NCBI GenBank assembly: GCA_964464605.1
Contig: CAYXJN010000002.1
Location: 124,001 to 188,000 of the forward strand
DNA: 64,000 nucleotides
Reading direction: 5' to 3'
From: an uncultured Ignavibacteriales bacterium
GTDB lineage: Bacteria; Zixibacteria; MSB-5A5; GN15; FEB-12
Below, one piece after another: positions 1,735 to 19,781 of the stretch (within the stretch, counting starts at the first letter, position 1; the number at the start of each line of letters is the position of its first letter). The notes under the pieces were generated by a model. It had not been told where the DNA came from. It ran no database searches and saw only the letters and a program-made list of their open reading frames with translations. Made by a program: the position numbers and the translations under genes.

Positions 1735-2295
1735 CTACTCTTTCGCTTTGCTGACGCCTACTTTGGCGTGGCGAAGCACCCGGTCCCCCTGCACATACGC
1801 TTTACTCAATTCAAGCGCGACAGAGCCAACCGGATAGGCATCGGTTTCAACTTCCATGATAGCATCATGCAGTTTCGGGTCGAACGGTTTGCCCAGTGAA
1901 TCAACCGCCGTTATACCTTCTTTAGTCAATACGCCCTGTAACTGCGAAAAAATCAGTTCCGTTCCTTTGACGATTGCCGACGGATCCCCGTTCCCTTGCG
2001 CATGATGCAGCGCCCGGTCGAAGTTATCGATAACATCGAGCAAATCACCCAACAGCCGGTCATTGGCCGCTTTCGCCATATCATCATATAACCGGGCTGT
2101 TCGCTTTTTGTAATTTTCAAATTCAGCTGCAGCGCGAAGCAGTTGGTCTTCTAATGCTTTGACCCGGAGTTCCAGTGTTTCAGCCGTATCGGATGTGCTC
2201 TCATCCGCAGGCGTCGGATGCGCTCCTTCCGCTTCAAAGGCTGCTTTTTGCATCTGTTCTTCCATGGCTTCCTGTGCGCGTTCTTTATTACTCAT
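1735..2295 (-). CDS. grpE: Nucleotide exchange factor GrpE
   Basis: LRAAAEFENYKKR, FDPKLHDAI, RVLRHAKVGVS; start placed at the ATG overlapping the hrcA stop. Confidence 0.96.
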   Translation of the reverse strand: MSNKERAQEAMEEQMQKAAFEAEGAHPTPADESTSDTAETLELRVKALEDQLLRAAAEFENYKKRTARLYDDMAKAANDRLLGDLLDVIDNFDRALHHAQGNGDPSAIVKGTELIFSQLQGVLTKEGITAVDSLGKPFDPKLHDAIMEVETDAYPVGSVALELSKAYVQGDRVLRHAKVGVSKAKE

Positions 2296-3337
2296 TCGTT
2301 GTATCCTTTTTTGCTCCCCCAAGCGCCTCAGTAATCGTTTTGGCTGTGTATTCAACGACCGACACCAGTTTGTTGTACGGCATCCGGGTCGGGCCAATAA
2401 CTCCGATTGAACCAGCGATATCTCCCACTCGATATGTCGAGGTCACCACCGAGCAGCTCATGATCTGGTCGACTTTGTTTTCATGGCCGATGGTAATTAC
2501 CAAGCCTTCCTCACTCGCATTATGCAGAAAATCCGTGAGAATTCGGTCATCTTCTAACAGTTTGACCAACGCCGATACTTTATCCCGCTCATGAAACTCA
2601 GGTTGGCTTAACAGATTGTCCGCACCGGATAGATTGATATTCGTCGAGGGGGCATTCTGCAGCAGTTTATCTTTTGCATCTAAAATCAATTTGATCAAGC
2701 GTCCGTGTCCGACGACATCCGCAAGCCGCTTGGTCATCGTGTCTCTGATAACCCCAAGCGACAAGCCGGATAGTTTCTCATTGAGGATCGATTCGAACTC
2801 ACGAAGCATCGATTCTGAAATTGTCGCTTCCACCTCGATAATCACGCTACGGACAATTCCGGATGAGAGAATTACGACAACCATAATTCGCCCTGCAGCG
2901 ACTGGAATCAGATCCATCCGCTTTAGCACACCCGATTCGAAACGTGGTGCTATAGTTACGCCGAGTTCTTTCGTAATTTCACTCAACACTTTGCAGGTCT
3001 GGCCGAGGATCTCTTTCAATCCTGTCCCATCCTGCGTAACAGCGGATTTAATAGCTTCCTTTTCCGCAGGCGTAAGCTCTTCCGGTTTCAAAAGCGAATC
3101 GACATAGAAACGGTATCCCAAATCAGTTGGAATCCGCCCCGCCGAGGTATGCGGCTGCTGCACCAAGCCGAATTCTTCGAGGTCCTGTAGGGTGTTGCGA
3201 ATCGTGGCCGAGGAAATACCCATCCCAAACCGGTTGGCAATTACCCGCGACCCGACTGGATCCGCTGAGGCGATATAGTAATTGACCAGATTGGCCAAAA
3301 TCTGTTTTTCCCGCTCACTTAGATTCTCGAAAGACAT
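2288..3337 (-). CDS. hrcA: Heat-inducible transcription repressor HrcA
   Basis: PVGSR, SSATIRN, PHTSAGRIPTDLGYRFYVD, IGVIGPTRMPY. Confidence 0.97.
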   Translation of the reverse strand: MSFENLSEREKQILANLVNYYIASADPVGSRVIANRFGMGISSATIRNTLQDLEEFGLVQQPHTSAGRIPTDLGYRFYVDSLLKPEELTPAEKEAIKSAVTQDGTGLKEILGQTCKVLSEITKELGVTIAPRFESGVLKRMDLIPVAAGRIMVVVILSSGIVRSVIIEVEATISESMLREFESILNEKLSGLSLGVIRDTMTKRLADVVGHGRLIKLILDAKDKLLQNAPSTNINLSGADNLLSQPEFHERDKVSALVKLLEDDRILTDFLHNASEEGLVITIGHENKVDQIMSCSVVTSTYRVGDIAGSIGVIGPTRMPYNKLVSVVEYTAKTITEALGGAKKDTTNE

Positions 3338-3394
3338 TGCCTTACTTCGCAATCTGCCACATTGGCAGTTTTTACATGTCAGTTTAGTTCTCTC

Positions 3395-3422
3395 AATTTA
3401 GCGCATTTATAACACGCGTCAA
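3395..3422 (-). promoter_or_regulatory. Candidate sigma70 promoter of hrcA-grpE-dnaK
   Basis: Minus strand TTGACG-N16-TAAATT about 60 bp upstream of hrcA. Confidence 0.5.
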
Positions 3423-3448
3423 GACAAAACGGTTCATGCCCAAACAAC

Positions 3449-3473
3449 AAAAAACCCTCATTCGAGGGCTTTT
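3449..3473 (-). terminator. Intrinsic terminator
   Basis: CCCTC/GAGGG stem with A/T tracts downstream of the 3504 gene. Confidence 0.55.
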
Positions 3474-3503
3474 GTGGACGTTAATGAAATATGAGTAGCT
3501 GAA

Positions 3504-3818
3504 TTACTTCGGAGACTTTGGCTGCTGCGGCGGTTTTTCTTTCGGCTTCTGATTCTCTTTTCGATCATCGATGCCGTTGTTGTTTTTGTCTACAAAGTTG
3601 TCATACCGTTTCGCCGTTTGATTCGTGCGCGGTTTCTGCTGCGCTTTCGGGTCAGCAGGTTTCTTCACGCTATCAGGGCGCGGAGCCGGCGCCTGTTGCG
3701 CAGGTTGCTGCTGCTCCGTTTTCTTTTTCTCTGCAGTCTTTTCTGTTTTCTCAACAGCACAAACCGAGAGATTACATGCGAAACATACCGCGAGTGTTAA
3801 AGTAAGTATCTGTTTCAT
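3504..3818 (-). CDS. Small secreted low-complexity protein with an EF-hand-like loop
   Basis: Signal-peptide-like N-terminus; FVDKNNNGIDD motif; K/Q/P-rich. Confidence 0.65.
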   Translation of the reverse strand: MKQILTLTLAVCFACNLSVCAVEKTEKTAEKKKTEQQQPAQQAPAPRPDSVKKPADPKAQQKPRTNQTAKRYDNFVDKNNNGIDDRKENQKPKEKPPQQPKSPK

Positions 3819-3881
3819 ATTGTTGCTCACTTTCGCAATCTATCGACAGCCTCCGTGAACGCAACCTTAAAAGAAAGGGGG

Positions 3882-5417
3882 TTAGTCCCCTTTCTTCTTT
3901 CCATAACTACCGGGGTTACGTTTCGAGGCACCGCCGCCATCATTCGATTTTGGCGCAGGTTGTGACACTTTTCCTTCTGCTTTCTTCTGTGGAGCCGTCG
4001 GTTTCGCCTGAGCCGGTTTGTCACTGTCGTCAGACACCTTCGGCTGCGCTTTCTTCACGGCCGATCCTTTTTTGCTCGGCGATTTGGTGGCACCGGACTC
4101 TTTACCGGATGTCGTTCCGTTATTCACGGATGAGTTTCCATTCTGAGTCTTTCGCGGTGCCGGTGAATAACCTGAACCGTTGTTATCCGATTTTTCTCTA
4201 CGATAGCTGCTCGTGCTGCCATCACTTTTGCTATTCACGCCAGAACGTTGTTTCCGTTCGTAACCGGAACCTGCGGCGCTGCCGCCTTTGGTTTCATAAC
4301 CGCGATCGGTCTTTGTCACGCTGCCGTCGCCATACAAGTACTTCTTCGGTAATACCATATTGTCACCGTCGAAGTTATTGCTCTTTCCTTTTTGCGACGG
4401 AACTATCTGCTTTTTATCGATACCGGTCTTGCTCAGATTCGATGACCCCATCGCGATCTTCTGCTTTTCAGCAAACTTCGGATAGCCGTTTTTCACCGGG
4501 TCTCTGTAACCGGAAGTACGAACTTCTTTGTACTTTGACACATTGTTCACGGAAGTATGAACAATAGTCTTATTCAACACCACCGTGCGATAGCGGGAAA
4601 TATGGATATCATCTTCCCAACAATATCCCCACGGATCATAAATAGTCACCGTCTGCCATCCGCACAGAATACGCGGGATATAGAGCGGAGCGCATCCCCA
4701 GTAAATACCGTTGATATACACCGTCGCGCCGTACGGATAATCGATATAGACATTACCGCAGACCGACCAGGACGGATAATCCGGATAATAGACCGGCTGA
4801 TAATAAACGGGCTCCCATTCGTTCACATATAACGCCGCGCGATCATAGGCGAAACGCTGACCATCATAGCGAACGAAATAGCGGGCGTTGATATATTCCA
4901 TAAAGTCGGAACGGTCTTCTTCATCGGTCGTAATACCGGAGTTCGGATACCAGTCCGGAATAGGAATACGCTCGCGCGAAGCAATGATCTGAATGTTCTC
5001 CGTGCCTGACGGGCCGGTTACTTTCAGATCATAGTTGCTGTTAACGCTCGGCAAGCGATACGTCACGCCCCCGGAAACAAAGTTGTCATCACCCGGATCA
5101 GCCGGATACAACAGTTCTACCCGGCCGCGTGTGTCGATCGAGTAGATCACCACAAACGCATCCCGGTTGGCCATAAAGGAAATAGTGATATTATCTCCTT
5201 CGTAATATTCCCCGTCTCTATGGTTAGTCCAAACCTGCACATCCAAGTATCGATCGATCAACGGCTGATTGTCATACCGGTTGTCCGAACGATCCACTGG
5301 CTCATCATCGCCGTAGTCGCGCACGATATTATCCTGCGCCACGGCACTCGTCAGAAGCATCCCCATACTCAGTATGGTTGAGCTAATCAGAGTTTTCATC
5401 CACGATTTCATAATCAT
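3882..5417 (-). CDS. Secreted DUF4384-domain protein with PEGA-like segment and low-complexity tail
   Basis: Signal peptide; VQVWTN..YYEGDNITISF..DAFVVIYSIDTRGRVELLYP resembles DUF4384; PYGATVYING is PEGA-like. Confidence 0.75.
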   Translation of the reverse strand: MIMKSWMKTLISSTILSMGMLLTSAVAQDNIVRDYGDDEPVDRSDNRYDNQPLIDRYLDVQVWTNHRDGEYYEGDNITISFMANRDAFVVIYSIDTRGRVELLYPADPGDDNFVSGGVTYRLPSVNSNYDLKVTGPSGTENIQIIASRERIPIPDWYPNSGITTDEEDRSDFMEYINARYFVRYDGQRFAYDRAALYVNEWEPVYYQPVYYPDYPSWSVCGNVYIDYPYGATVYINGIYWGCAPLYIPRILCGWQTVTIYDPWGYCWEDDIHISRYRTVVLNKTIVHTSVNNVSKYKEVRTSGYRDPVKNGYPKFAEKQKIAMGSSNLSKTGIDKKQIVPSQKGKSNNFDGDNMVLPKKYLYGDGSVTKTDRGYETKGGSAAGSGYERKQRSGVNSKSDGSTSSYRREKSDNNGSGYSPAPRKTQNGNSSVNNGTTSGKESGATKSPSKKGSAVKKAQPKVSDDSDKPAQAKPTAPQKKAEGKVSQPAPKSNDGGGASKRNPGSYGKKKGD

Positions 5418-5440
5418 ATCTCCGTGTTGCATTGTTTTCG

Positions 5441-6313
5441 TTACTTAGTGGCGCCTTTGCGCATCTGAACATACTGCTCTTTAGTCATCGAGCTGGTATT
5501 CATCGGCTGCGTCGGGTGCTCTTTGGGCAAACTCAGTTCCGGATTACCGGGGTCAGTCTGGTATGCCCAGTGCAAATCGACATATGAATTTGCAAAGCTA
5601 ATGTTATCAATCTGAATCTTGGCGTAGTTGTTGTCGGCTGTCCAGATGACATAGACGTGACCATCGACCACTTCGGCAAATGATCCGTTAATCCATCCAT
5701 CCGTCGGAGCGACATTGACTGCATCGAGTGAGGAATGCCATCCCATATCCTGCATATCCGTATCAGTGCGTCCTTTGTTGATGAACATGATACCGCCAAC
5801 CTGGTCGAACCAGATATCCGCTGCCGTGCTGTTCCAGGCAACTGTGTTTTCGGCGGCGAAGCTATAACCGGAAGTTGCATAGGAACCGGTAGTATCAAGC
5901 ACGCGGATGGTTCCTTCCGGACGCGGCGTATCGAACACCTCTTCAGCCGAGAGATCAGAAATCTGGCCGCTTCGATCGACACTGGCAACGGCGTAGTAAT
6001 AGGTTTGACCGTTCTGCGCGCTGTTGTCGACAAACTCATATTGGATTAAGTCGAGTGAGCCATTAGAAAGTGCATCCCGTCGACCGATTTCATTGTAGTT
6101 GTCGATCGGGTCGAAAGAACGAAAAATGATATACTCTTCGATATCCGATTCATACGGACCGTTCCAATAGAGATACACGGCATGGTCACCGGTAATTGAA
6201 AACACTCCCTGTGGTGCGGCCGGTACTGAATCCCCAAGAATCTGGTCATCTTCACAACCGGTGAGGGTGAACACTGCTACGGCAACCATCAAACTTCCAA
6301 TTATCTTCTTCAT
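5441..6313 (-). CDS. Lipoprotein with fibronectin type III-like domain
   Basis: Lipobox LTGC; PAAPQG..VYLYW..FVDNSAQNGQTYYYAVASVD..S. Confidence 0.8.
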   Translation of the reverse strand: MKKIIGSLMVAVAVFTLTGCEDDQILGDSVPAAPQGVFSITGDHAVYLYWNGPYESDIEEYIIFRSFDPIDNYNEIGRRDALSNGSLDLIQYEFVDNSAQNGQTYYYAVASVDRSGQISDLSAEEVFDTPRPEGTIRVLDTTGSYATSGYSFAAENTVAWNSTAADIWFDQVGGIMFINKGRTDTDMQDMGWHSSLDAVNVAPTDGWINGSFAEVVDGHVYVIWTADNNYAKIQIDNISFANSYVDLHWAYQTDPGNPELSLPKEHPTQPMNTSSMTKEQYVQMRKGATK

Positions 6314-6352
6314 ATATACTCCTGAGCACATCGCTCGTTATGTCAGTATATA

Positions 6353-6400
6353 AACAGAAACTGTGCCAGAAGCCGTAAGGTGTGTATTTCCAATGAGTTG
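6353..6400 (-). promoter_or_regulatory. Candidate sigma54 promoter with adjacent IHF-like site for the 6313-3504 operon
   Basis: Minus strand CTGGCACAGTTTCTGTT (GG-N10-GT, non-canonical -12); TTCCAATGAGTTG at 6388-6400 resembles IHF WATCAAN4TTR. Confidence 0.5.
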
Positions 6401-6452
6401 GTGTTTTTTGCGTACCCCGAAAGGCAGCTATGACGCACTGTTATTGTGCATG

Positions 6453-6659
6453 GGTTTTAGGTATGCCCCAATTTGGTGCGTGAATATGAAGCTGGACTGC
6501 TTACAGGCCGCTATTGACGTCAATTTTTGGCATTACAACTATATGCGGAAACACTCAAGTATCGGAACCACTCCTGCAATAAAAGCTGGAATAGTTGATC
6601 GGGTGCAAACTTGGTCTGTGGTGATTAACGAACCAGCATTTAACAGCTTGGCGGCTTAA
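6453..6659 (+). repeat. 207-bp direct repeat, copy 1 (copy 2 at 7028-7234)
   Basis: Manual alignment: first 98 nt identical, then 15 substitutions in 109 nt, no indels. Confidence 0.97.
6486..6659 (+). pseudogene. C-terminal fragment of an IS1-family-like DDE transposase (57 aa)
   Basis: KLDCLQAAIDVNFWHYNYMRKHSSIGTTPAIKAGI fits the YN..R.H.S...TPA..AG tail of IS1-related transposases; catalytic region absent. Confidence 0.75.
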
Positions 6660-6676
6660 TGAAAATGATATATAAT
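6648..6676 (+). promoter_or_regulatory. Candidate sigma70 promoter spanning the repeat/cargo boundary
   Basis: TTGGCG-N17-TATAAT. Confidence 0.55.
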
Positions 6677-6830
6677 TTAATATGGAGGCAGGAGTACGCA
6701 AGAGCGGCTCCCCATCTTGGTTATCCCTACTTAGTTATTAGCACTCCCCCCTTCCCTCCGCCGGAAGCTCATGGCTTTCGACGGGGGTCGAAGGGGCAGA
6801 GACTTTTAACACTTAAGGAGGTGATGACCA

Positions 6831-6962
6831 TTGGCGAAGAGCGCTAAACCTGATAAGGGTTTAGTAGAAGTGTTTTGTCGTTACATAACCGTAAAAGGCA
6901 AACGCATCTACCCGAAAAACGCTCAGTTCTTCCATTTCTGGGTTCAACCCAAGAAACGGTAG
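6831..6962 (+). CDS. Small basic protein, 43 aa (MAKSAKPDKGLVEVFCRYITVKGKRIYPKNAQFFHFWVQPKKR)
   Basis: Strong SD TAAGGAGGT before a TTG start; below the ORF-track size cutoff. Confidence 0.7.
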   Translation: MAKSAKPDKGLVEVFCRYITVKGKRIYPKNAQFFHFWVQPKKR

Positions 6963-7027
6963 CTTCTGAGTGAACGCGTCTCCTCCTCCAAATTCAAAAA
7001 AGCCTCATTTCAAATTAGGCCAGTACC

Positions 7028-7234
7028 GGTTTTAGGTATGCCCCAATTTGGTGCGTGAATATGAAGCTGGACTGCTTACAGGCCGCTATTGACGTCAATT
7101 TTTGGCATTACAACTATATGCGGAAGCATTCAAGTATTGGAACCACTCCGGCAGTAAAGGCCGGAATAGTTGATCGGGTGCAAACGTGGGCGGTAGTGAT
7201 TAACGAACCAGCAATGAATAGCTTGGCGGCTTAG
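7028..7234 (+). repeat. 207-bp direct repeat, copy 2
   Basis: Aligns with 6453-6659 at an offset of 575. Confidence 0.97.
7061..7234 (+). pseudogene. Second transposase C-terminal fragment (57 aa)
   Basis: MKLDCLQAAIDVNFWHYNYMRKHSSIGTTPAVKAGIVDRVQTWAVVINEPAMNSLAA. Confidence 0.75.
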
Positions 7235-7470
7235 GGTAATTTTACATTCGGGAAATAAGGAATTGCCTTGAGTTGCCCACGCTTTTTCTTTCGTGAATAA
7301 TTAACAATTGTAAACCCGACAATCTCGTTTGTTTTTATATCGCGTCGGATAAGAACACCATTACTCGTTTCTTCGCTAATTGCAGGCGTACTTTCACCTA
7401 TGAAAGCGTAAAGCACATCACCAGATTTGTCGTAATCGTACTTTATTTGAGTTGACCTTTTGGCATCCAT
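7231..7470 (-). CDS. DUF2283-family protein (putative antitoxin)
   Basis: YDKSGDVLYAF..EETSNGVLIRRD..EIVGFTI pattern. Confidence 0.8.
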   Translation of the reverse strand: MDAKRSTQIKYDYDKSGDVLYAFIGESTPAISEETSNGVLIRRDIKTNEIVGFTIVNYSRKKKRGQLKAIPYFPNVKLP

Positions 7471-7790
7471 ATAATTCTCGTTACGGGCAAGTCAGATGTC
7501 AGATGAGCGGTTACTATACTACCTTTATCGGTAATATCGAATTTTACTACAACCTTACCGAATAAATGAGGAAAGTCAGAATGTAACCCCTTGACGGAGT
7601 ATACGTTTGTATCTATATCGTGAACGTCCTCTTGAATGTATGTCGGTGACGAAATACAAGTCTGTAGTGAATCAAGAGGAAATTCTTTATGTCCCTGCCT
7701 AATATGCTTTACGCGCTCAGACCTCAACTCAACAGGACGCCCCATAGGGTCTGAGACTACCCATAGCACTTTAGGGCTGAACTTTGACAT
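7443..7790 (-). CDS. Putative RelE/BECR-fold-like toxin (DUF4258/PBECR-like)
   Basis: DPMGRPVEL..ER.KHI..GH..P.YI..KVVVKF..IVTAH pattern; overlaps the DUF2283 gene. Confidence 0.55.
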   Translation of the reverse strand: MSKFSPKVLWVVSDPMGRPVELRSERVKHIRQGHKEFPLDSLQTCISSPTYIQEDVHDIDTNVYSVKGLHSDFPHLFGKVVVKFDITDKGSIVTAHLTSDLPVTRIIWMPKGQLK

Positions 7791-7800
7791 ATAACCCAGC

Positions 7801-8127
7801 TTATTGTTGGGTCTTTTTTTCTTCGGGAATTGAAATGACCCCGAATTGTTTTTCGTATTTTTCTAATTGTCTCGCGAGAACTTCACTAAGAACTTTGAAG
7901 TGTTGTGGACTCATCTGGAGAATAAATTTTGGCTCAACGATCTGATACGCCGGTTCAGCAACTGAGTTAATAGTAGCACTGGCTACAATCATCTGAAATT
8001 CAAAAAGTGTAAAGTTTACCTTAATTGTATTACTGTATACCTTAGGTATAGTAACAAATGGGTCTATTGTAGAAGACTCAACTTCAGGCTCTGCCGCCAT
8101 TGAATTATCCCTTACCTTTTGTTCCAT
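7801..8127 (-). CDS. DUF3467-family protein
   Basis: VYSN..V.FT.FEF..MSPQHFK.L..L..QLEKYEKQFGVI. Confidence 0.8.
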   Translation of the reverse strand: MEQKVRDNSMAAEPEVESSTIDPFVTIPKVYSNTIKVNFTLFEFQMIVASATINSVAEPAYQIVEPKFILQMSPQHFKVLSEVLARQLEKYEKQFGVISIPEEKKTQQ

Positions 8128-8136
8128 TGTATAATA

Positions 8137-8165
8137 AAAATATACTTAAGAAATCACTTTGTCAA
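8137..8165 (-). promoter_or_regulatory. Candidate promoter of the unit 2 cargo operon
   Basis: Minus strand TTGACA followed by an AT-rich TATATT/TATTTT element, just inside the right end. Confidence 0.45.
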
Positions 8166-8236
8166 CCTATACTATGCAACCCATTGCACTTCCAAATTAG
8201 GACAGTACCCACTCAGTTCAACGCACAAAAAACGTG

Positions 8237-9583
8237 TTAGTCACGTTCGAGCTTGTATTCAGATATCTTCAGGCGGAGAGTGTTGCGATGGATGCCAAGG
8301 GAGTCGGCGGCTTTCCCCATATTCCAGTCGAGCTTATCAAGAGTCGCTTTAATATGCCGGCTTTCGAGCTCTGAAAGTGTAAGATCAGACGGCGCTGATA
8401 AAGGGGCTGACACTGCTTTGGGGAGCAAATCGGTCAGTTCTTGCGGCGTTATTCTATCGTGGTCACTTAGAATCACGGCGCGTTCAATCGTATGCTGCAA
8501 CTCGCGCACGTTGCCGGGCCAGTCATAACGGAGTAAGATATCAGCCGCTTTTTGGTCGATTTTCGTCACCTGTTTTCGGAATCGTATCGAAGCCCGTTTC
8601 AAAAATTCCTGCGCTAACAACAGTATATCCCCTTCCCGCTCACGAAGCGGCGGGAGATCGATTAAAACAGTATTTAGGCGATACAATAAATCCTGCCGGA
8701 ACAAACCCGAGGCAACTTGCGATTCCAAATTGCGATTCGTCGCCGACACCAAGCGGAAATCGACAAAGATCGGTTTCGTACCGCCAACACGGGTAACTTC
8801 TTTATGCTCCAGTACCCGCAGCAGTTTCGCTTGCAGTGTTAACGGCAATTCACCGATTTCATCCAAGAACAATGTGCCGCCATCGGCCAGTTCGATATGC
8901 CCGACTTTCTGTTTATCCGCGCCGGTAAACGCACCTTTTTCATGCCCAAACAATTCCGATTCTAACAATCCTTCCGGAAACGCAGAGCAATTGATAGCAA
9001 CGAGCCGTTTGTCAGCACGATCCGAAACAGCATGCAACGCACGGGCGACTAACTCTTTCCCTGTTCCCGTCGGCCCGGTGATTAACACGGTCGCATCCGT
9101 TTTGCCGAACCGGGCGATATTCTCTTTCGCTTTTCGTATCGATTCCGAGTTGCCGATTATTTCTGAATCAGGAAAGAGTTCATCGAGTTTCCGGCTCATG
9201 ATCTGATGTTCAACAAGAATGCGATTCTGCTGCGATGCTTTGGTAATCTTCGCAAGCAGTTCATCCAAATCCTGTACGGGCTTGGTGAGAAAATCATACG
9301 CGCCGGAACGCATCGCCGTTACTGCCGTATCGATTGTCCCGTACGCGGTCAGAATAATGACCTGCACGAACGGATTGATTTCTCGCAAATGCACGAGCAG
9401 ATCGAGTCCTGACATTCCCCCCATTTTCATATCACTGATTACCACCGGAGAAAAATGCTCACGATACGAAGCTAATGCCTGTTCTCCGCTTTCGGCCTGA
9501 TGCACAGTAAACCCCTGCTTGGCCAGAAAACCGGCAAGCAGCGACCGCTGGGATGATTCATCATCGGCTAAGAGTATTCGCAT
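8237..9583 (-). CDS. NtrC-family sigma54-dependent response regulator
   Basis: REC domain, Walker A GPTGTGKE, GAFTGA, WPGNVREL, Fis-type HTH. Confidence 0.96.
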   Translation of the reverse strand: MRILLADDESSQRSLLAGFLAKQGFTVHQAESGEQALASYREHFSPVVISDMKMGGMSGLDLLVHLREINPFVQVIILTAYGTIDTAVTAMRSGAYDFLTKPVQDLDELLAKITKASQQNRILVEHQIMSRKLDELFPDSEIIGNSESIRKAKENIARFGKTDATVLITGPTGTGKELVARALHAVSDRADKRLVAINCSAFPEGLLESELFGHEKGAFTGADKQKVGHIELADGGTLFLDEIGELPLTLQAKLLRVLEHKEVTRVGGTKPIFVDFRLVSATNRNLESQVASGLFRQDLLYRLNTVLIDLPPLREREGDILLLAQEFLKRASIRFRKQVTKIDQKAADILLRYDWPGNVRELQHTIERAVILSDHDRITPQELTDLLPKAVSAPLSAPSDLTLSELESRHIKATLDKLDWNMGKAADSLGIHRNTLRLKISEYKLERD

Positions 9584-9595
9584 AACAGGTATACA

Positions 9596-9627
9596 ATAAA
9601 AATGCGGCTACGAATCCGCAGCCGCAT
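9596..9627 (-). terminator. Intrinsic terminator-like hairpin
   Basis: ATGCGGCT/AGCCGCAT stem with a U-tract on the minus strand. Confidence 0.55.
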
Positions 9628-9653
9628 CTAAAATTTTCATGCAGTAAACTAAA

Positions 9654-10316
9654 TCAGTCGCCGGAACCGAAGAGCACCCGCAGACCGAAACGAATATCCA
9701 GCACACCGATTGTACCGTCGACCTTGTATGTTTCGCCGGTATAATTCTTTTCAGAATTCTTGGTCATTGCGGTGTGGTACCCGACTTCTACAAACGGGCC
9801 GCTGTAATCGGCCGTGTAGTAGGTCAAACCGGCTGAAATACCGAGTGAAAGCGCCGGGTCATAGCTGATTTCACGGAAACGGTCACCGCCCGGATTGTCG
9901 ACCGGCGTAACCAAACGGGGATTTTCAATACCGATATGCGCTTTGATAAACGGCTCCAAGTTGCTGTTCATGGAAATGGTACGGCGGACATAAAGCCGCG
10001 GTGAAAACAGGCGATGTTTCAGATCACCGAAATCTCCCGCCCGGTGAACACCAAATTGATAATAGGAAAAGCCGAGACCGACTACCCAGTTTGGAGTCAG
10101 AAAATAGCCACCCTCAATACCGACGGAATAGCCGATTCGGGCGCCGATTGTATCTGCAAAGGTTGCAAAATCAGCAGCCGGGACCGATGCTCCACCTATC
10201 AGATGAATTTCTAAGGCATCCTTTTCTTCGTCGGCTTCTTCCTGAGCATCCTGTCCGAAAACGGGCACAGCCGTCACAAACGCTGTCAACACACTGAGTA
10301 GTAACCACTTCTTCAT
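9654..10316 (-). CDS. Outer-membrane beta-barrel protein
   Basis: Signal peptide, alternating amphipathic strands, terminal IRFGLRVLF strand. Confidence 0.75.
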   Translation of the reverse strand: MKKWLLLSVLTAFVTAVPVFGQDAQEEADEEKDALEIHLIGGASVPAADFATFADTIGARIGYSVGIEGGYFLTPNWVVGLGFSYYQFGVHRAGDFGDLKHRLFSPRLYVRRTISMNSNLEPFIKAHIGIENPRLVTPVDNPGGDRFREISYDPALSLGISAGLTYYTADYSGPFVEVGYHTAMTKNSEKNYTGETYKVDGTIGVLDIRFGLRVLFGSGD

Positions 10317-10421
10317 GTACCGTATCCTCTTCCTCGTTCATGTCGTACCTCATCCCGCAATTCGCCCCATTATGCCCAATTCCGGTGCGGCGGTAAAGCG
10401 GTCAAGTAATTCGGTAAGACC

Positions 10422-11069
10422 CTACTTGTCAATAGTTTCGTTGACGGCTATCCCCCCGGATTTGTTGAACGCCGCATAGCGAATTTCACGCCCCAAAGAG
10501 CGCCATTTCTGCTCGAAATAGGTCGGCTGATACATAGCAATAGGACAAACATTGGGAGAATCAGGGTTCAAGTGAGTAAGCCCTGTTATCCCCTTTGCAT
10601 TGTTCACGACCCAGTCGACATAGCCGCCGACATCCGATGCGACAAACAATGTCCCGTTTACTTTGAGCTTGTCGACGAGAAATTGCAGCACTTCCTGCTT
10701 TAACAACCGATTGTGCACATGCCGGTTTTTCGGCCAGGGATCGGGAAAGAGCACATACACCTGCTGCAGCGAAGTAGGTTCGATGTATTTCGGAACGATA
10801 ACGCGGGCATCACCGTGAACGACCAGGACATTTTTAAGTCCCCGTTTTTCGATTCGCGTGGAAAGTTTGGTGAACCGTGTCCGGCCGATTTCGACGCCGA
10901 CAAAACGGACATCCGGATTTGCCTCCGCCGATTGAAACAGAAAATCACCGCGCCCGGGGCCGATTTCGAGCACATCGGCGTGAATAACCTCAACGTGCTC
11001 CGGATAAAACTGGAGCGGTTGTGTTTTGCGGTATTCAAGCGGGAACTGGCGGTATATCAGCTTCGGCAT
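10422..11069 (-). CDS. trmB: tRNA (guanine-N7)-methyltransferase
   Basis: LEIGPGRG, FPDPWPKNRH, TYFEQKW. Confidence 0.92.
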   Translation of the reverse strand: MPKLIYRQFPLEYRKTQPLQFYPEHVEVIHADVLEIGPGRGDFLFQSAEANPDVRFVGVEIGRTRFTKLSTRIEKRGLKNVLVVHGDARVIVPKYIEPTSLQQVYVLFPDPWPKNRHVHNRLLKQEVLQFLVDKLKVNGTLFVASDVGGYVDWVVNNAKGITGLTHLNPDSPNVCPIAMYQPTYFEQKWRSLGREIRYAAFNKSGGIAVNETIDK

Positions 11070-11127
11070 CTTCGAATCAAGATATGAAAAATTCCCATCA
11101 ATCTCAACCCGCCGTGACAGACAAAAG

Positions 11128-11155
11128 AAAAAGGACGTGCCAACAGGCACATCCT
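11128..11155 (-). terminator. Intrinsic terminator
   Basis: AGGACGTGCC/GGCACATCCT stem with a U-tract on the minus strand. Confidence 0.55.
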
Positions 11156-11181
11156 CTCTCTGAATTTATTATATAAACAGG

Positions 11182-11925
11182 TTAGAACTGACGACGGTCT
11201 TCCCGGGTTTCGCGGCGATCTTCGCGTAACTCACGATGATCTTCGCGCAGTTCACGGTGCCCCAAGGTAATTTCACGGCGAGAAAGCACTAAGTAGCTGT
11301 TATAAAGCTCTTCCTGTCTGCGATACCCTTCATCTTCATTGATGACACCCCTGTCAATCTTCGATTGGACATTCCGCAATTCGAGCGCCACTTCCCGTTT
11401 TGCAGCAAGAATTTCTTCGGCCTTGACCATGTCACGAACATCGTCGCGGCGATCACGACGGTCATCTCGCAAATCATGACGTTCATTTTGAACCTGAGCA
11501 TTGGCACGCGCGGCATTTTCCTTTTCTTGATTAGCCAGCGCATTAGCTTCTACCCGTTGGCGTTCTGCCAAGTCATCACGCTCGCTATATATTTCACGGG
11601 TACTCTGGCGCACTTCACGTTTAGCCAGAGCTGCCTGATTCGCGGCTTCAGCAAGATCACGACGAAGCTCTTTCGCAATTTGCCGTTGAACGTCTCGCAT
11701 TTTTTTTGTGTTCCCTTGTGAGCGGTAATCATCCCACTTCTCGATCAAACTTGATAGACGGTCAAGGTCGGCACGGTCGTCCGCAATTGCCACTCTATCC
11801 TGACGGATCTGCTGACGGTCCTCCGCTTTTTCCCATGCGTTTTTCGCCTGCTGGGCTGAGGTGGTACCTGCTGCCAAGATGAGACAGGAGATAATCGCTG
11901 CGAGTGACTTGCTGCTTCTTTTCAT
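11182..11925 (-). CDS. Secreted charged coiled-coil protein with D/E-R-R-D/E repeats
   Basis: Signal peptide; DLRDDRRDRRDD and ELREDHRELREDRRETREDRR repeats. Confidence 0.75.
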   Translation of the reverse strand: MKRSSKSLAAIISCLILAAGTTSAQQAKNAWEKAEDRQQIRQDRVAIADDRADLDRLSSLIEKWDDYRSQGNTKKMRDVQRQIAKELRRDLAEAANQAALAKREVRQSTREIYSERDDLAERQRVEANALANQEKENAARANAQVQNERHDLRDDRRDRRDDVRDMVKAEEILAAKREVALELRNVQSKIDRGVINEDEGYRRQEELYNSYLVLSRREITLGHRELREDHRELREDRRETREDRRQF

Positions 11926-11977
11926 ACTTTCTCCTCTAACTACGTCTGTTAACGAGGCACGTTAATACGCAGATAAA

Positions 11978-12036
11978 AGCGAAGCAGATGCCAAGCCCCG
12001 CGACTAACGGATAACGCACTGATTTTCAATGAATTA
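11978..12036 (-). promoter_or_regulatory. Candidate sigma54 promoter plus IHF-like site
   Basis: Minus strand TTGGCATCTGCTTCGCT (GG-N10-GC); TTTCAATGAATTA at 12024-12036. Confidence 0.55.
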
Positions 12037-12161
12037 CGGACAACGACTAAAGCGACAACACCGTCCGGTTTTGGCCCGTTCGGTACAGAGTACTGTACCT
12101 ATGTCCATTTTTTGTGGCAATGTTAGGTCGGGAACTGAGCGGTGGGGATTTGGAAATTGTA

Positions 12162-12248
12162 TGCCGGAGACCGGACTCGAACCGGTACGCCCCTTTCGGA
12201 AGCAAGGGATTTTAAGTCCCTGGTGTCTACCAATTCCACCACTCCGGC
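12162..12248 (-). tRNA. tRNA-Leu (anticodon TAA)
   Basis: GCCGGAG acceptor stem, CT-TAA-AA loop, long variable arm, GGTTCGAGTCC. Confidence 0.97.
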
Positions 12249-12382
12249 AAGGACTGCTAGGATAATGGCTTTCTGGTCTGTGCGCAACTCTGCGAATTTG
12301 ATTTCAAAAAAGTCAGTCCGCAGAACACAAAACAAGGAAATCAGAACATTGGTTACCGCGCTTTCTTCCTGAGAAATGTCTC

Positions 12383-13033
12383 TCAGTATAAATGCTTAAG
12401 TTCTGAATACGCCCCTTTCACGTGAAGCGTCACGTTAACGGTATTCGCATTTCTGTTGCGCCAGAACCAACCGTGACTCCCGTCGAAGGCCGCCTCCAGT
12501 ATCCCACCGCCGCTCTGTTCAGACCCTTTTTCATAGCTGTGATACTCTATGTTCAGCGGTTTTGAATCGGCGTGTGTGTCAAAAATCACTTTTCCGCCAT
12601 CCGACCACCAGACGTATTCGACCTTATGCCCCTTATTCATGATCAATTTGATTTCTTTCCCTTCATCCGGCTGCAAACTGATCGTGACACTGTCACTCCG
12701 TATATTGACATTCACTGAAGCAGTGACCTGCGTATCAGGCGCAGATACGGCTGGGTGCTCCACTTTCTGCGATAGTGTGTTTTCTTTGCTTTCTGCCGAT
12801 TCGTGTTGCATTTGATGATCCCATTTCGCTTCGGCTGCCAATGATGCCTTTATCTCCCCCATACGCGTCAAACCGAGAATGTTTCCAACACCGGTATAGT
12901 CGATTCCGTATTCGGCGGGTAGAATGACAGTAAAAAAGAGGGTAATAGCAGCGCCGATAGCCAGAATAGTTGACTGCATGAGCGTACGTTTCGAGGGAAG
13001 CGTCACATTCGGTGGTATATTTGTATTTTCCAT
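12383..13033 (-). CDS. Transmembrane anchor protein associated with HupE/UreJ
   Basis: VILPAEYGIDYTG.G, FDGSHGWFWRNR motifs; one TM helix. Confidence 0.8.
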   Translation of the reverse strand: MENTNIPPNVTLPSKRTLMQSTILAIGAAITLFFTVILPAEYGIDYTGVGNILGLTRMGEIKASLAAEAKWDHQMQHESAESKENTLSQKVEHPAVSAPDTQVTASVNVNIRSDSVTISLQPDEGKEIKLIMNKGHKVEYVWWSDGGKVIFDTHADSKPLNIEYHSYEKGSEQSGGGILEAAFDGSHGWFWRNRNANTVNVTLHVKGAYSELKHLY

Positions 13034-13048
13034 TTTTAATCCTTTTTG

Positions 13049-13774
13049 TTACGACCGGAAGAAACCCGCCATCTGATACCCAGCCAGGAAGAATCCACAG
13101 AGCATCAATACGACATTCGCCGAATAGGCGTGCTTATTAAATTGCTGTGAGCGGCGCCAGTACCCCATCGCGATGAGAATCATGGCCAATCCCATCAACT
13201 GTCCTAACTCGACACCGACATTGAAAGCAACCAGATTAGGGATTAAGCCATCCGGTGACATTTGATAATCGAGTATCTTCGTCGCTAATCCAAAGCCGTG
13301 AAACAGTCCAAAAATAAGCGTAGCGATTTTGGTGTTCGGTTGAAATCCAAACCATTTCTGATAGACACCCATATTATCAAGCGCCTTGTAGACAACCGAT
13401 AAACCGATGATTGCATCGATGATGTACGCATTAACACCGGTATTCATCAACACACCAAGCAGCAGAGTGATTGAATGTCCAAGGGCAAAGAGTGTAACGT
13501 AAAGACCGACATCTCTCAACCGGTATAAAAAGAAGATAACGCCAAACAGAAACAGAAGGTGATCGTAGCCGGTCACCATATGCTTAGCGCCGAGATAAAT
13601 GAACGGGATGAGCATTATACCGGAGCTTTCCTGAATGAAGCCTTTATCTCCGTCCGTGACACCATGCGCGAACACATCTGCGCTCAGACCGCAAAGCAAT
13701 ACAAAGGCTATCCCCACGACCATATACAAAAATAGGTGCCTATGACTCAATAATTGTTTCATCATTTCAGACAT
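13049..13774 (-). CDS. HupE/UreJ-family metal transporter
   Basis: GAKHMVTGYDHLLF, GHSITL, FGLFHGFG, FNVGVELGQ. Confidence 0.92.
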   Translation of the reverse strand: MSEMMKQLLSHRHLFLYMVVGIAFVLLCGLSADVFAHGVTDGDKGFIQESSGIMLIPFIYLGAKHMVTGYDHLLFLFGVIFFLYRLRDVGLYVTLFALGHSITLLLGVLMNTGVNAYIIDAIIGLSVVYKALDNMGVYQKWFGFQPNTKIATLIFGLFHGFGLATKILDYQMSPDGLIPNLVAFNVGVELGQLMGLAMILIAMGYWRRSQQFNKHAYSANVVLMLCGFFLAGYQMAGFFRS

Positions 13775-13872
13775 ATAATAATTTTCCTCTCACAATCGTA
13801 GCGAACAAAGCACAGGCATATATCTATGCCTATTCTTTGCGCAATCTATATGGTAAAAAGAAACACGAGGTA

Positions 13873-14280
13873 TTAGGCAAAAAATGGTGGACTGCGAAGA
13901 GAAGCGGACGAGGGTAAATCAGGCAATCGCCATTGCCGCTCATAGTCATATAGGTAAATCGCTGAAACCTGATTCGATGTTTCATTCAGTGACCAGATAA
14001 CAGCCGCTACCAATTGGGGTGAAAATTGAATGGTGATGACTTGCTGGCGGTGCGGCAGACCGCGTTCGGTATACTGTTGATACGTATGGTGGTGGTCGTC
14101 ATGATGGTGAACAGGGATATGCTCCGGCTCCACATCCATTGGGTGCAAACTCAGCTCGAACGGCCATGAAGTAATTTCGTGAGAATGATGAAAATGGATA
14201 TAAGGTTGCACCTGCCCGAAGTAGGTTAATAGCACTACCACAAACATACCGAACAGCGGGGGTTGGGTTCTTCTAATCAT
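13873..14280 (-). CDS. His-rich small protein
   Basis: HFHHSH and HHHDDHHH runs; C-terminal RSPP as in DUF2946-like proteins upstream of metal-uptake genes. Confidence 0.6.
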   Translation of the reverse strand: MIRRTQPPLFGMFVVVLLTYFGQVQPYIHFHHSHEITSWPFELSLHPMDVEPEHIPVHHHDDHHHTYQQYTERGLPHRQQVITIQFSPQLVAAVIWSLNETSNQVSAIYLYDYERQWRLPDLPSSASLRSPPFFA

Positions 14281-14655
14281 GGTTACGGCTTATACATTCC
14301 ATGAGCTGGTTTATATATGCCCGCTCGAATTGTAAGTCAACTTTTTATCTATATAGGGAAACGGTACAAAAAAGGATACGAAGTACGCGATGGCAAGCGG
14401 CGTACTGTTTTTTGTGCCATACACTTATACCATATCTGTTACGGACATATGTCAGCATCTAAAACTTATTCTGTATATCAGCAGTCTGTTTCCACATGAA
14501 ACAGCTTAAAATCGACCGATTCACAACACTGACCATTTCGTAACACAAAAAAATCAGAACCGGTTATCGAACATGGGCTTTCCCTTCAGTTTTTAGTGCT
14601 TTCGCCGAATAATTATCTAAGAGGACGGAAACGTATTTGAGGGATACAAGACAAC

Positions 14656-15300
14656 ATGCGGACACACAGCATATTTACAGGCAGTAACAATTCAATCAAT
14701 AAAAACGAAGCGCATTTTCCTGCTGTCGCTACTGCCGTGCTTTTTATCTTCTTTGCCTCATCCGGTTCTACCGACGCCTACGAAACACTCCCTTCACCGA
14801 GTGAACTTAAGAAACTGAGCGTTGAGGAACTGATGAACCTTGAGGTCACTTCAGTTACTAAAACTCCTAAGAAACTCTCTGCGGCTCCTTCTGCCATTCA
14901 GGTAATCACCGCACAGGAGATACGCCGCTCCGGAGCCACTACTATTCCGGAAGCATTACGACTCGCCACCAACCTGCATGTTGCGCAAAAAGGAACGCAT
15001 GAGTGGGGCATCGCTGCTCGAGGATTCAATACCAGCCTGGCAAACAAACTGCTCGTATTGATTGATGGCCGCACGGTCTACACGCCGCTGTATTCCGGTG
15101 TTTTCTGGGAACGGCAGGATTATCTGCTTGAAGATATCGACCGGATAGAAGTTATCAGCCGTCACGGCGGCAAAATTTGGGCGGAGGGCAAAGTCAACGA
15201 AGGAGCCAGTTTCTATTTCACCCTCGAATTATCGAATGGATCATATTCATCACAAGGAGTCGCTCATGACCAGCAAGAGTATACTGCTAGTCGAGGATAA
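14656..15300 (+). pseudogene. Chimeric ORF: TonB-dependent receptor plug fused to a histidine-kinase C-terminal tail
   Basis: Plug: LSVEELMNLEVTSV..LIDGRTVY..DIDRIEVIS; then HATPase end RHGGKIWAEGKVNEGASFYFTL. Confidence 0.85.
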
Positions 15301-15721
15301 CGAAAACGATATCCAGCTAACGCTGCGTGCACTTAAGAAAAATGGGATATTCAACGAAATCGTTATCGCCCGTAACGGCGAGGAAGCGCTTGAGTATTTA
15401 CACGGTACCGGACAGTATGCGGGCCGCAATTCCGACCAACTTCCGCAGGTTGTTCTGCTTGATTTGAAACTGCCGAAAGTTGACGGACATGAAGTGCTTC
15501 AGCATATCCGCTCCACCGAACGGACCCGTTATTTGCCGGTTGTTATCATGACATCATCGAAAGAGGAACAAGATATTCTCTCAAGCTATCACTTGGGAGC
15601 TAACAGCTATATCCGCAAGCCGGTTGATTTCGAACAATTTTCCGAAGCAGTCAGAAGTTTAGGGTTGTATTGGTTGTTGCTGAATGAGGTAGCATCCAAA
15701 AGCGAAACAGTAGCCAAATAG
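15266..15721 (+). CDS. Single-domain response regulator (Rcp1-like)
   Basis: ILLVEDN, LLDLKLPKVDG, GANSYIRKPVDF; SD AAGGAG. Confidence 0.93.
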   Translation: MTSKSILLVEDNENDIQLTLRALKKNGIFNEIVIARNGEEALEYLHGTGQYAGRNSDQLPQVVLLDLKLPKVDGHEVLQHIRSTERTRYLPVVIMTSSKEEQDILSSYHLGANSYIRKPVDFEQFSEAVRSLGLYWLLLNEVASKSETVAK

Positions 15722-15740
15722 CGGTGACATGCGATCCAAC

Positions 15741-15772
15741 AAAAAAAGCCCGATACTCTGTATCGGGCTTTT
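15741..15772. terminator. Bidirectional intrinsic terminator
   Basis: AAAAGCCCGATAC/GTATCGGGCTTTT between convergent genes. Confidence 0.8.
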
Positions 15773-15790
15773 GATTTTATGAACAGTATA

Positions 15791-17587: not shown

Positions 17588-17764
17588 AGAGTTCTTTTGT
17601 CCTTTGTGTATGGTGGTACTCAATTGTTCTTTCTCATGTTTAAAAAATAATAGAATCCCCCCGAGCTGGATGGAGGTACTCATTGGACAGGGCGGACTGT
17701 CTGCGGGACTTAATATACGAACTTTTTGGTATATGCAAAGATTTTTTGACCGGTGGTCAACGGC

Positions 17765-19708
17765 TCAGGAACGCGTAAAAACAAGGATTCCCAGCGGCGG
17801 CAGGGTAAGAATCAAAGACTGATCATACCCGTGGCTCCCGCGTGATTCGGTTTGCAAGGCTCCGCCGTTGCCGACATCTGTTCCACCGTATATTGAAGCG
17901 TCGCTGTTTAGCGCTTCCCGCCAAAGTCCTGCCGATGGGACACCGAGCCGGTATTGCTCCCTCGACACCGGCGTGAAATTAGCAACTATCAGCAGCGTAT
18001 CCTGCTCTGTTTCACCGAATCTGAGCCAACCGACAATACTTTGCTGCCAATCTTCGCAATCGATCCAGCGAAATCCGGCTGGCTCAAAATCACGGGTATG
18101 GAGTCCAATTTCTGACCGGTACAAGTGGTTCAAGTCCCGAACCCAAGTTTGGATGCCCTGATGGTCGGCGTACTGCAACAGATGCCATTCCAGACTATGC
18201 TCATGATTCCACTCCGCTCGCTGGGCAAACTCCCCTCCCATGAACAATAGCTTCTTCCCCGGATGGGTGAACATATACCCCAAAAGCAGGCGTAGATTCG
18301 CAAATTTCTGCCAGTCATCCCCCGGCATTTTGCCGATTAACGAACCCTTGCCATGCACCACTTCGTCGTGTGACAACGGCAAAACGAAATTCTCAAAGAA
18401 AGCATACCAAATGCTGAAGGTTATCTGATTATGATGATGTTTCCGATAAACCGGGTCCTTTGACATGTAGACCAGCGTGTCATGCATCCATCCCATATTC
18501 CATTTCATCCCGAAACCAAGTCCACCCATCGACACTGGCCGGGAAACCATCGGCCAGGCGGTTGATTCTTCCGCGATCATCTGAACATCCGGAAATCTTT
18601 CATAAATCAACTGATTGCACTGACGAATAAACTCAAGCGCTTCCAGATTTTCGCGCCCACCCTGCCGATTCGGAATCCACTCTCCCGTCTGCCGGGAATA
18701 ATCCAAGTAAAGCATTGAAGCAACGGCATCGACGCGTAACCCATCAGCATGATATTTATCTAACCAAAACAGTGCGCTGCTGGTCAAAAATGAACGGACT
18801 TCGTGGCGATCATAATTGAAGATCGAGCTTTTCCAGTCGGGATGGTACCCTTGCTTTGGATCGGCATGCTCGAATAAGTGAGTGCCGTCGAAATAAGCCA
18901 GTCCATGTTCATCCGCTGGAAAATGTGAGGGTACCCAGTCGAGAATGACGCCTATTCCCTGTTGGTGCAGATAATCGATAAGGGACATAAAATCCTGCGG
19001 TGTGCCGTATCGACTGGACGGGGCAAAATAACCGACGGTCTGATATCCCCATGACCCATAAAACGGATGCTCCATAACGGGCAGAAATTCAACATGCGTA
19101 AAACCCATCATCTTGACATACTCGGCAAGCGGTTGCGCTAATTCTTGGCAGGAGAGTAATCGGCTTGGATCGCGGGGATCACGTCGCCAGGAACCGAGAT
19201 GTACTTCATAAACCGACATCGGTGCACGGAGATCGTTCTGCCGCTTCCGTTCTCCCATCCACATCTCATCATGCCAGTGGTAATCCAATGACCAGACTTT
19301 TGAACCGGTACGCGGCGGCAGCTCCCACCAGAACGCGAACGGGTCTCCCTTATCGACACGGTAATTGTTGTGGTGGGAGACAATATGATATTTATAAATC
19401 TCACCGGATGAAATGCCAGGGATGAACCCTTCCCAAATTCCGGAACCATCCCAGCGCACACCCAACGGATGAGCCACCGGATTCCAGCCGTTAAAATCGC
19501 CAATGACAGCTACCGACTTGGCCGCCGGCGCCCACACGGAAAAGAGCGCTCCTTTTGTCCCCTCATGTTCAATTTGATGTGAACCCAATTTGTCGTACAA
19601 ATTCGCGTGACGACCCTGCCTGAACAGATGCAGATCGAAATCGGTCAGACGGCTGATGCCGTGTACAACCGAACCGACTGCTGAAGGCTTGGAAACTGAT
19701 TTGGGCAT
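17765..19708 (-). CDS. glgB: 1,4-alpha-glucan branching enzyme
   Basis: [45 protein letters not shown]. Confidence 0.97.
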
Positions 19709-19781
19709 ACCGGGAATATCGCACAGCAAGCAGGCAGGCTCAAGATTTGATTTTATGTGAATAACTGACTATTCTTTCGTC

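Follow-up and report, generated by a model that had tools for sequence, protein, structure and literature searches.

The block at positions 6453-8209 of the 64,000-nt stretch analysed here (the window; part of contig CAYXJN010000002.1 from the genome of an uncultured Ignavibacteriales bacterium) is probably made up of two head-to-tail copies of a passenger-carrying insertion sequence (IS) of the IS1 family, a transporter IS, both of them 5'-truncated and both likely to be immobile relics. In the initial annotation the block was described as a tandem cassette array built from IS1-like ends, and was taken for an integron-like platform that accumulates genes and is mobilised in trans. Our result is mainly one of annotation: the apparent cassette array would be partial tandem copies of an IS1-family transporter IS.

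The first description of the layout was borne out. Two abutting units, 6453-7027 and 7028-8209, lie head-to-tail and share a leader, found in the repeat search as a direct repeat of 206 nt (6453-6658 and 7028-7233, 93% identical, offset 575 nt), and a right-end motif (7008-7027 and 8190-8209, 90% identity), with differing cargo between them. The two cargoes have no similarity to each other, and each gave only self-matches when compared with the whole genome by blastn. The order within a unit is GGTTTTA, GGTATGCCCCAATTTG, 13 nt, an ATG frame of 57 codons, unrelated DNA and CAAATTAGG(C/A)CAGTACC, and in each unit the 13 nt form a subterminal sequence between a damaged left repeat and a transposase tail. 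GGTTTTA is a 7-nt direct repeat bracketing unit 1 on the plus strand, and its second copy (7028..7034; the first is at 6453..6459), bridged by contigs in four of four sequencing runs, serves as the spacer that separates unit 1, at its end, from the start of unit 2. The degenerate left inverted repeats follow at 6460..6475 in unit 1 (GGTATGCCCCAATTTG, with one gap and two mismatches to GGTACTGTCCTAATTTG) and at 7035..7050 in unit 2, both on the plus strand, and the right inverted repeats lie on the minus strand at 7011..7027 in unit 1 (reverse complement GGTACTGGCCTAATTTG, 16/17 to the family repeat) and at 8193..8209 in unit 2 (reverse complement GGTACTGTCCTAATTTG, 17/17).

The evidence supports the 57-codon frame as the C-terminus of an IS1-family transposase, as had been proposed. 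The frame corresponds to the last 57 codons and the stop of the gene (plus strand, 6486..6659 in unit 1 and 7061..7234 in unit 2), and in unit 1 it is 45-54% identical to the C-termini of relatives of 276-288 aa. A profile search on the 59-aa fragment alone stayed below threshold, with only rve_3 at 16-16.7 bits (cut-off 26.5) and no NCBIfam match, and the homology comes from alignment with full-length relatives. A six-frame search of 60 related genomes and the window's own (G000) gave matches in 13/61, G000 included, several of which sit inside open frames of 281-311 aa. The assignment to IS1 is supported by four observations: the open reading frames (ORFs) of G018, G047 and G044 (276-288 aa) pass the PF03400 profile DDE_Tnp_IS1 with 30.2, 36.2 and 36.5 bits (cut-off 24.1); the two proteins scanned against NCBIfam, those of G018 and G044, score highest with transpos_IS1 (77.3 and 68.6 bits, short of the equivalog cut-off of 100), ahead of the next family at 31-33; plasmid homologues in Mesorhizobium, Hoeflea and Acidiphilium carry the annotation 'IS1 family transposase'; and the window fragment aligns to residues 230-275 of the full-length relatives at 47-54% identity (tblastn).

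The catalytic part of the transposase is absent from the window. That the window holds no intact transposase gene was confirmed and could be extended to all 18 contigs of the genome, in which tblastn with three full-length relatives gave the two C-terminal fragments, no intact gene, and other matches only at E > 1; the units are non-autonomous, as claimed, with no transposase in either. A full-length parent of the leader was sought in the genome, in the order and in metagenomes, and was not found. The leader occurs at two places only in the 2.8 Mb of its own genome; it was not found in 159 other genomes of the order, which gave two short, weak DNA matches only; and the metagenome scan returned eight loci, the best with 64% amino-acid identity over 33 residues. 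A word-based protein search for longer parent proteins gave four candidates, none of them scored, which is weak evidence.

The terminal repeats lead to the same family. The right ends read GGTACTG and the left ends GGTATGC, which is one base short in the tip (GGTA-TG), and the terminal form GGnnnTG is found at the right ends only. The match between the left end and the reverse-complemented right end, first described as having one gap, was reproduced, with one gap and two mismatches to the right end of unit 2 or three to that of unit 1. The left end lies at edit distance 3 from the consensus, with the deletion in its tip, and since only about 31 sites among 5.63 million positions of the genome (both strands) lie within edit distance 3 of the 17-mer, chance is a very unlikely cause of such a match at the unit boundary and the left end is a degenerate left repeat. 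Judged from these sequences, the right end is a true IS terminal repeat and the left end a damaged copy of it.

The ends had been called IS1-like, and the right end indeed proved to be the repeat of a widespread IS1-family group. In G044, GGTACTGTCCTAATTTG stands directly after the transposase stop, and it forms an inverted pair around the transposase genes of G044, G047 and G023; a close variant is present in G022. The exact 17-mer was present in at least 122 stretches of a collection of species-representative genomes, and among the matches listed were Acidobacteriota, Binatia, Planctomycetota, Verrucomicrobia, Chloroflexia, Alphaproteobacteria and others. Target duplications were counted on 61 distinct inverted pairs in the fetched loci: a perfect direct repeat of 8 bp lies outside 34 pairs, one of 9 bp outside one and one of 7 bp outside one, while the other 25/61 have 0-2 bp, several of these being, by eye, 8-mers with one mismatch. 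The pairs span 34-271 bp in miniature elements and 2.0-3.9 kb in transposase-bearing elements, and the complete plasmid of the cultured Acidiphilium multivorum carries a 2634-bp member (L198:1767-4400) with related repeats and the duplication AAGCCGAG. In the part of PMC10425158 that gives the ISfinder row for IS1, the ends are 'GGnnnTG' and the duplication is '8-9' bp, which the tip GGTACTG and the 8-bp duplications fit. A search for inverted repeats within 1.5 kb of the relatives' transposase genes gave no convincing candidate, the true left repeats lying 1-1.7 kb further upstream.

Several further observations were made on this group. Among the at least 122 stretches with the 17-mer (L026-L147), most matches belong to miniature elements 70, 90-91 or 101 bp long that have 8-bp duplications, and a genome often contains several of them. 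The strict conservation of the 17-mer is striking beside transposases that are just about 35-60% identical. At L077:1494-4017 the same terminal repeats, with no duplication, enclose two tandem genes for 347-aa IS1595-type transposases (PF12762 at 126 bits, with the zinc ribbon PF12760) and no IS1-type gene. On the Acidiphilium plasmid, a pair of genes for a RES-domain toxin and an Xre-type antitoxin (L198:4383-5221) starts where the element ends on the right, sharing the element's final 18 nt, and these are further toxin-antitoxin genes beside the IS group. Directly upstream of the start codon of the IS1-like transposase, a stretch of about 110 nt is conserved in six relatives (L004:712-837, L008:700-825, L021:5486-5610 on the minus strand, L191:388-513, L025:4672-4795, and L024:6271-6405 on the minus strand). 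It is predicted to form two hairpins, with 7/21 predicted pairs kept through two-sided changes, and matches no Rfam family in the three loci scanned (L004, L008, L191). A gene for a winged-helix-like protein of about 130 aa often lies just upstream of it; the units in the window have lost this portion of the element.

The positions of foreign genes in the relatives support the view that the window cargo sits where this IS group carries its passengers, between the transposase and the right repeat. In the G047 element, which has an 8-bp duplication, a 289-aa ORF lies between the transposase gene and the right repeat; Panacea-domain antitoxin genes with a partner are the passengers in G022 and in a Kapaibacterium record, and another record has NYN and HTH genes. 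In G023 the order is left repeat, a 278-aa ORF, a transposase tail (87-94 aligned residues), an unassigned 115-aa ORF, a ParE-like toxin gene, others and the right repeat, and this element has no full transposase and two perfect repeats. Elements in which IS ends enclose passengers are called transporter IS by the ISfinder authors, and those lacking the transposase mobile insertion cassettes, in the section of PMC3129680 that defines them.

How the two units came to stand side by side is suggested by a relative with an insertion at the same site. The full-length element of G018 (L022:2435-4969) carries at each end the repeat variant GGTACTGGTTCCG(A/T)TT and has a perfect 8-bp duplication, TCCTGGAG; directly after the right-hand TCCTGGAG comes CACTGTCCTCATTTT-GTGCGTAT, an older damaged left repeat. 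The subterminal GTGCGT of this older remnant is the same as in the window leader, and HicB/HicA-like genes and the regulator gene follow it. As the duplication abuts the old left repeat, a newer copy inserted exactly at the outer end of the resident remnant. The geometry in the window is alike, with GGTTTTA on either side of unit 1 and its second copy directly next to the left repeat of unit 2.

The leaders themselves tell of two different histories along their length. There are no differences in nt 1-98, GGTTTTA included, and 14 in nt 99-206 (13%); between the tails 13 codons differ, 10 of them synonymously (the stop counted) and three non-synonymously. The mostly silent nature of the differences indicates that selection at the protein level acted on the diverged part of the leader, most simply at a time when the tails would still have been part of functional transposase genes in two related elements, and the identity of the first 98 nt points to recent exchange. 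Transposase genes of the relatives are cut elsewhere, at about residue 190 in G023, about 211 in G014 and apparently near the C-terminus in G015, and the truncation point shared by the window units is thus a local one. We propose that a truncated older element (unit 2) would have been resident at the site, that a related element with a small-protein module would have inserted at the outer left end of unit 2, making the GGTTTTA repeat, and that the transposase tails would then have recombined, by unequal crossing-over or gene conversion, so that both units received the same truncated leader and the rest was lost. The passengers, that is, the small protein with its structured leader, the DUF2283 pair and DUF3467, probably persist through their own function or through addiction, and not through transposition.

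Some of the data weigh against this proposal of two transporter-IS copies. The direct repeat around unit 1 is 7 nt long and not 8, a length found in just one of the 61 family pairs, and the composite as a whole lacks a target duplication, with GGGTTTTA on the left and CACTCAGT on the right. Right repeats of 17/17 and 16/17 are odd for old, unselected relics whose presumed duplication has decayed. A transposase might lie on unassembled DNA or on a plasmid, as the assembly consists of 18 contigs, and a free 575-bp circle of unit 1 would be compatible with the contig data given below. The single-gene tree of the site, also described below, does not separate one old insertion from repeated hits. 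In addition, the order of events is one that we infer, and a path without a second transposition would fit most of the data. G023 has the same contrast of perfect repeats without a recognisable duplication, and the ends may have been renewed by later copies, may function in place or may reflect repeated precise targeting.

The chief alternative does without a second insertion, and we consider it unlikely. It would start from one ancestral truncated element duplicated in place, either by unequal crossing-over or by formation of a transposase-made dimer that copied the 7-nt left flank into the junction; recombination with another IS copy would then have brought foreign cargo and a diverged tail into one of the two. 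The identity of the first 98 nt together with the 7-nt spacer would be explained in this way, as would a spacer equal to the flank of the left-most unit, which is expected for one-ended attack outside the left repeat, and a length that departs from the 8-bp duplication of the group. However, this path requires replacement of the cargo and of the final 108 nt of the leader with only 17-20 nt of right-end homology on one side, and the G018 element is a true insertion next to a resident end at this very site.

The site itself lies between two genes on the minus strand, for a lipoprotein (5441-6331) and for a sigma-54-dependent response regulator (8237-9583). Host palindrome 1, GCAC-N7-GTG (6435..6448), forms the left border of the block and host palindrome 2, GCACAAAAAACGTG (8223..8236), the right border. 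Their starts are 1788 nt apart, and subtraction of the conserved 31 nt leaves 1757 nt, the length of 6453-8209. Upstream of the lipoprotein gene, in host sequence, there is a sigma-54-like -24/-12 motif (TGGCACAGTTTCTGT, 6354..6368, minus strand) whose function we infer. Regulator orthologues were located in 29 other genomes of the same family (54-61% identity vs at most 45% for paralogues), and the site was empty in 22, carried an insertion of like position and orientation in three, and was uninformative in four owing to rearrangement or contig ends (G026, G003, G010, G062). In the empty sites the lipoprotein gene follows the regulator gene after 159-243 nt, palindrome 1 is kept in 22/22, and a second palindrome lies 31-32 nt on, in a strict form in 9/22 and in a looser form in the rest. 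A TGGCAC-type, -24/-12-like motif precedes the lipoprotein gene in 21/23 sites, the window included. The palindromes are probably the enhancer of the activator and the -24/-12 motif the sigma-54 promoter.

The three occupied relatives, G023, G015 and G018, belong to three other genera. Their left repeat sits 13-14 nt after palindrome 1, against 11 nt in the window, and in G023 the right repeat lies 12 nt before the position of the second palindrome, as in the window. G015 retains about 230 nt in all, with a perfect left repeat, ATGCGTG and a 15/16-nt match to the window transposase tail, this last being a reading of the DNA by eye. A bolder reading would take the 13-nt spacer between the enhancer-like palindromes as a family-wide landing pad of the IS1 group, used at one fixed position and orientation, at which the resident end repeats attract further copies, arrays grow leftward and recombination in the transposase tails shuffles the passengers, making a cassette system free of integrase; we think this quite improbable. 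If the hot-spot part of it were true, it would imply precise target choice by a DDE transposase. The tree of the activator protein (30 rows, quickly made and star-like) has 17 of 27 inner branches unsupported and G000 on a long branch, and in such a tree one old insertion is indistinguishable from repeated hits. Mimicry of the chromosomal palindrome by the IS left end, seen in G047 and G023 and by half in G018, is not general and was dropped, as GCAC-N6-8-GTG within 80 nt occurred inside 5/175 ends and equally outside 5/175.

The claim that the block is an active, non-autonomous, integron-like platform, with cassettes mobilised in trans by a related IS1 transposase and an array that gains or swaps them, was not supported, and we regard it as very unlikely. 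The intact right repeats would suit it, and so would the ability of this IS group to mobilise transposase-less derivatives, as seen in the miniature elements with 8-bp duplications and in the cargo-bearing element of G023 with its two perfect repeats and no transposase. The leader peptide shows past purifying selection, and junctions of end, spacer and start have the geometry of IS circles and tandem dimers. Against this, the genome has no cognate transposase and the left tip has lost one base of its GGnnnTG form, which speaks against mobilisation in trans. The leader is present in two copies, both in this block, the cargo is unique in the genome and no further leader-cargo-end unit was found there, and the absence of the leader from the 159 order genomes, with the metagenomic best of 64%, points the same way. 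Unit numbers had been expected to vary at the locus, but no relative has more than two units at the site. A Pfam scan of 15 ORFs, each 110 aa or longer, at window positions 1735-19729 found no recombinase; it gave GrpE, HrcA, DUF4384, the sigma-54 activator, an outer-membrane protein, a methyltransferase and others. As judged with no attC model run, the unit boundaries are not of attC type; they are terminal repeats of IS1, also present in transposase-bearing elements that have target duplications. Finally, the units share one truncation point while the relatives differ in theirs, and local duplication fits this better than a circulating type of cassette.

It is highly improbable that the repeat-bounded DNA was instead co-opted by the host to regulate the lipoprotein or activator gene, even though such a takeover would explain the survival of perfect repeats beside drifted flanks. 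The same position and orientation in four genera would agree with it, as would the perfect 17-mers in G023, G015 and at 8193-8209 beside unrecognisable duplications, and the transposase tails are 54-57% identical between genera, about like the neighbouring activator protein (59%). However, 22 of the 29 relatives have no insertion, what lies between the repeats differs entirely from genome to genome, and the fresh insertion of G018 with its perfect duplication indicates a hot spot and not a fixed functional part.

The duplication had also to be separated from an assembly artefact. Twenty runs from seven studies contain the stretch or part of it, 16 of them at least half of its sampled words. 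Contigs were compared with it for four runs, each from a different study; three of these runs may be sources of the assembly. In X1 a 98-nt contig covers exactly the identical stretch 6453-6550 at depth 46.4 (flanks 20.9/25.7), in X4 a 98-nt contig covers 6453-6550 at 9.2 (4.7/6.0), and in X6 one lies on the second copy (7028-7125) at 26.6 (14.5/18.5). The end-7 nt-start junction that had been described is real, as a 537-nt contig (6521-7057) runs in 4/4 runs from unit 1 through the GGTTTTA junction into unit 2. In X10 there is no contig over 7152-8145 in unit 2, and such a hole proves nothing; otherwise the contigs from the four studies match the stretch. Repeat depth at about twice that of the flanks, together with the junction contig, indicates two repeat copies per genome and an existing junction, and the duplication was upheld in this check. 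That the repeat was collapsed or mis-joined, or that unit 1 is a free circle wrongly threaded into the chromosome, retains hardly any probability: no single contig spans the whole stretch and a short-read graph cannot separate R-U1-R-U2 (R, repeat; U, unit) from R-U2 plus a circle R-U1, but beside the doubled repeat depth and the four junction contigs, the contig specific to unit 1 lies at 0.9-1.4 times flank depth in X1, X4 and X6, and this steady ratio of about 1:1 across samples speaks for integration.

The cargo genes differ in kind between the two copies. The cargo had been called AT-rich, which holds for cargo 2 (38.6% GC vs 49% in the window) but hardly for cargo 1 (46.4%). The candidate promoter claimed for each was found again, as sigma-70-like sites at 6648..6676 (plus strand) ahead of cargo 1 and at 8137..8165 (minus strand) ahead of the cargo 2 genes, each a 10/12 match to the consensus only.

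Cargo 1 consists of a structured leader (6684..6830, plus strand), predicted to pair with the ribosome-binding site of the small gene behind it, and of that gene (6831..6962, plus strand), which encodes a conserved 43-aa protein. The fold of 6660-6835 has a predicted energy of -69 kcal/mol (z = -4.34), with 0/200 shuffles as good, and the same leader precedes the 43-aa homologues in four other genomes (L189, L190, L191, L192). For the window stretch and six related loci, Rfam gave just one microRNA match, attributable to chance (E 0.95), besides flanking matches of tRNA/tmRNA type. Six homologues of 42-48 aa are 65-74% identical to the window protein, with 20 invariant columns in the seven sequences and the invariant core EVFCRYIT..GK.IYPKNA..FHF; in this family the structured leader always covers the ribosome-binding site and a CCTCC-rich stretch follows the stop, and there is no Pfam, NCBIfam or Rfam match. 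The gene is patchy, being present in 6/285 genomes of the phylum with G000 included. In G202 a full IS1-like transposase gene stands about 170 nt upstream of it and an end-like motif about 45 nt downstream, and in G014 it follows a decayed transposase tail; by these contexts unit 1 looks like the right part of an IS variant that normally carries the 43-aa module. At L192:2116-2265 in G014, the transposase tail and 43-aa gene adjoin a tRNA gene and a tRNA-like or tmRNA-like stretch; mobile DNA commonly inserts at tRNA genes.

Cargo 2 carries three genes on the minus strand: one for a DUF2283 protein of 79 aa (7231..7470; PF10049 at 29.1 bits, cut-off 23), one for a protein of 115 aa (7443..7790) with a weak PBECR2 match (15.2 bits, cut-off 27.1), and one for a DUF3467 protein of 108 aa (7801..8127; PF11950 at 27.6 bits, cut-off 25). 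The first two genes overlap by 28 nt, and overlapping genes are frequent in toxin-antitoxin pairs. The 115-aa protein is a possible, putative nuclease-type toxin partner of DUF2283; it matched no NCBIfam or PADLOC family above the cut-off, and a word-based search gave no relatives. A relationship of the DUF3467 gene to the first cargo ORF of G023 was rejected (E 0.14).

Beyond the correction of the annotation, these data document the IS1-family group with GGTACTGTCCTAATTTG across many uncultured phyla, with its miniatures and its passengers of toxin-antitoxin type, although we do not claim that the group is undescribed. The block would also be a natural example, backed by G018, of insertion at the end of a resident copy, which is a simple route to head-to-tail IS arrays. 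In addition, the conserved palindrome pair, split here by 1.76 kb, provides a natural test of how far such sites can move apart.

Among known systems, the single-ORF, long members of the IS1 family have the same PF03400 DDE relatives, GGnnnTG ends, 8-bp duplications and miniature derivatives, whereas the window keeps only the last 57 codons, twice, and its left ends are without one tip base. Classical IS1 elements measure 740-1180 bp and have the insA/insB frameshift pair; the full relatives, in contrast, are 2.5-3.9 kb long, encode the transposase in a single long ORF, and have a structured leader and additional genes upstream. Tandem or intercalated IS copies and circle or dimer junctions are known for IS1, IS30, IS911 and IS21. 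The window shares with them the succession of right end, short spacer and left end, with a spacer equal to the left-most flank, but its units are non-identical, their cargo differs, both are truncated, and the sequence does not speak for an active junction.

The likeness to integron arrays is one of outward look only, with short promoter-bearing cassettes in a row and a repeated boundary, while the integrase gene, the attI or attC-type sites and the common promoter are missing and there are just two units. From the mobile insertion cassettes, as far as that section of PMC3129680 describes them with two working ends and several copies, the window differs by one damaged end, single-copy units and no cognate transposase. 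With the transporter IS and mobile insertion cassettes of the same section (PMC3129680) it has in common IS ends that enclose unrelated passengers, and units that do without a transposase.

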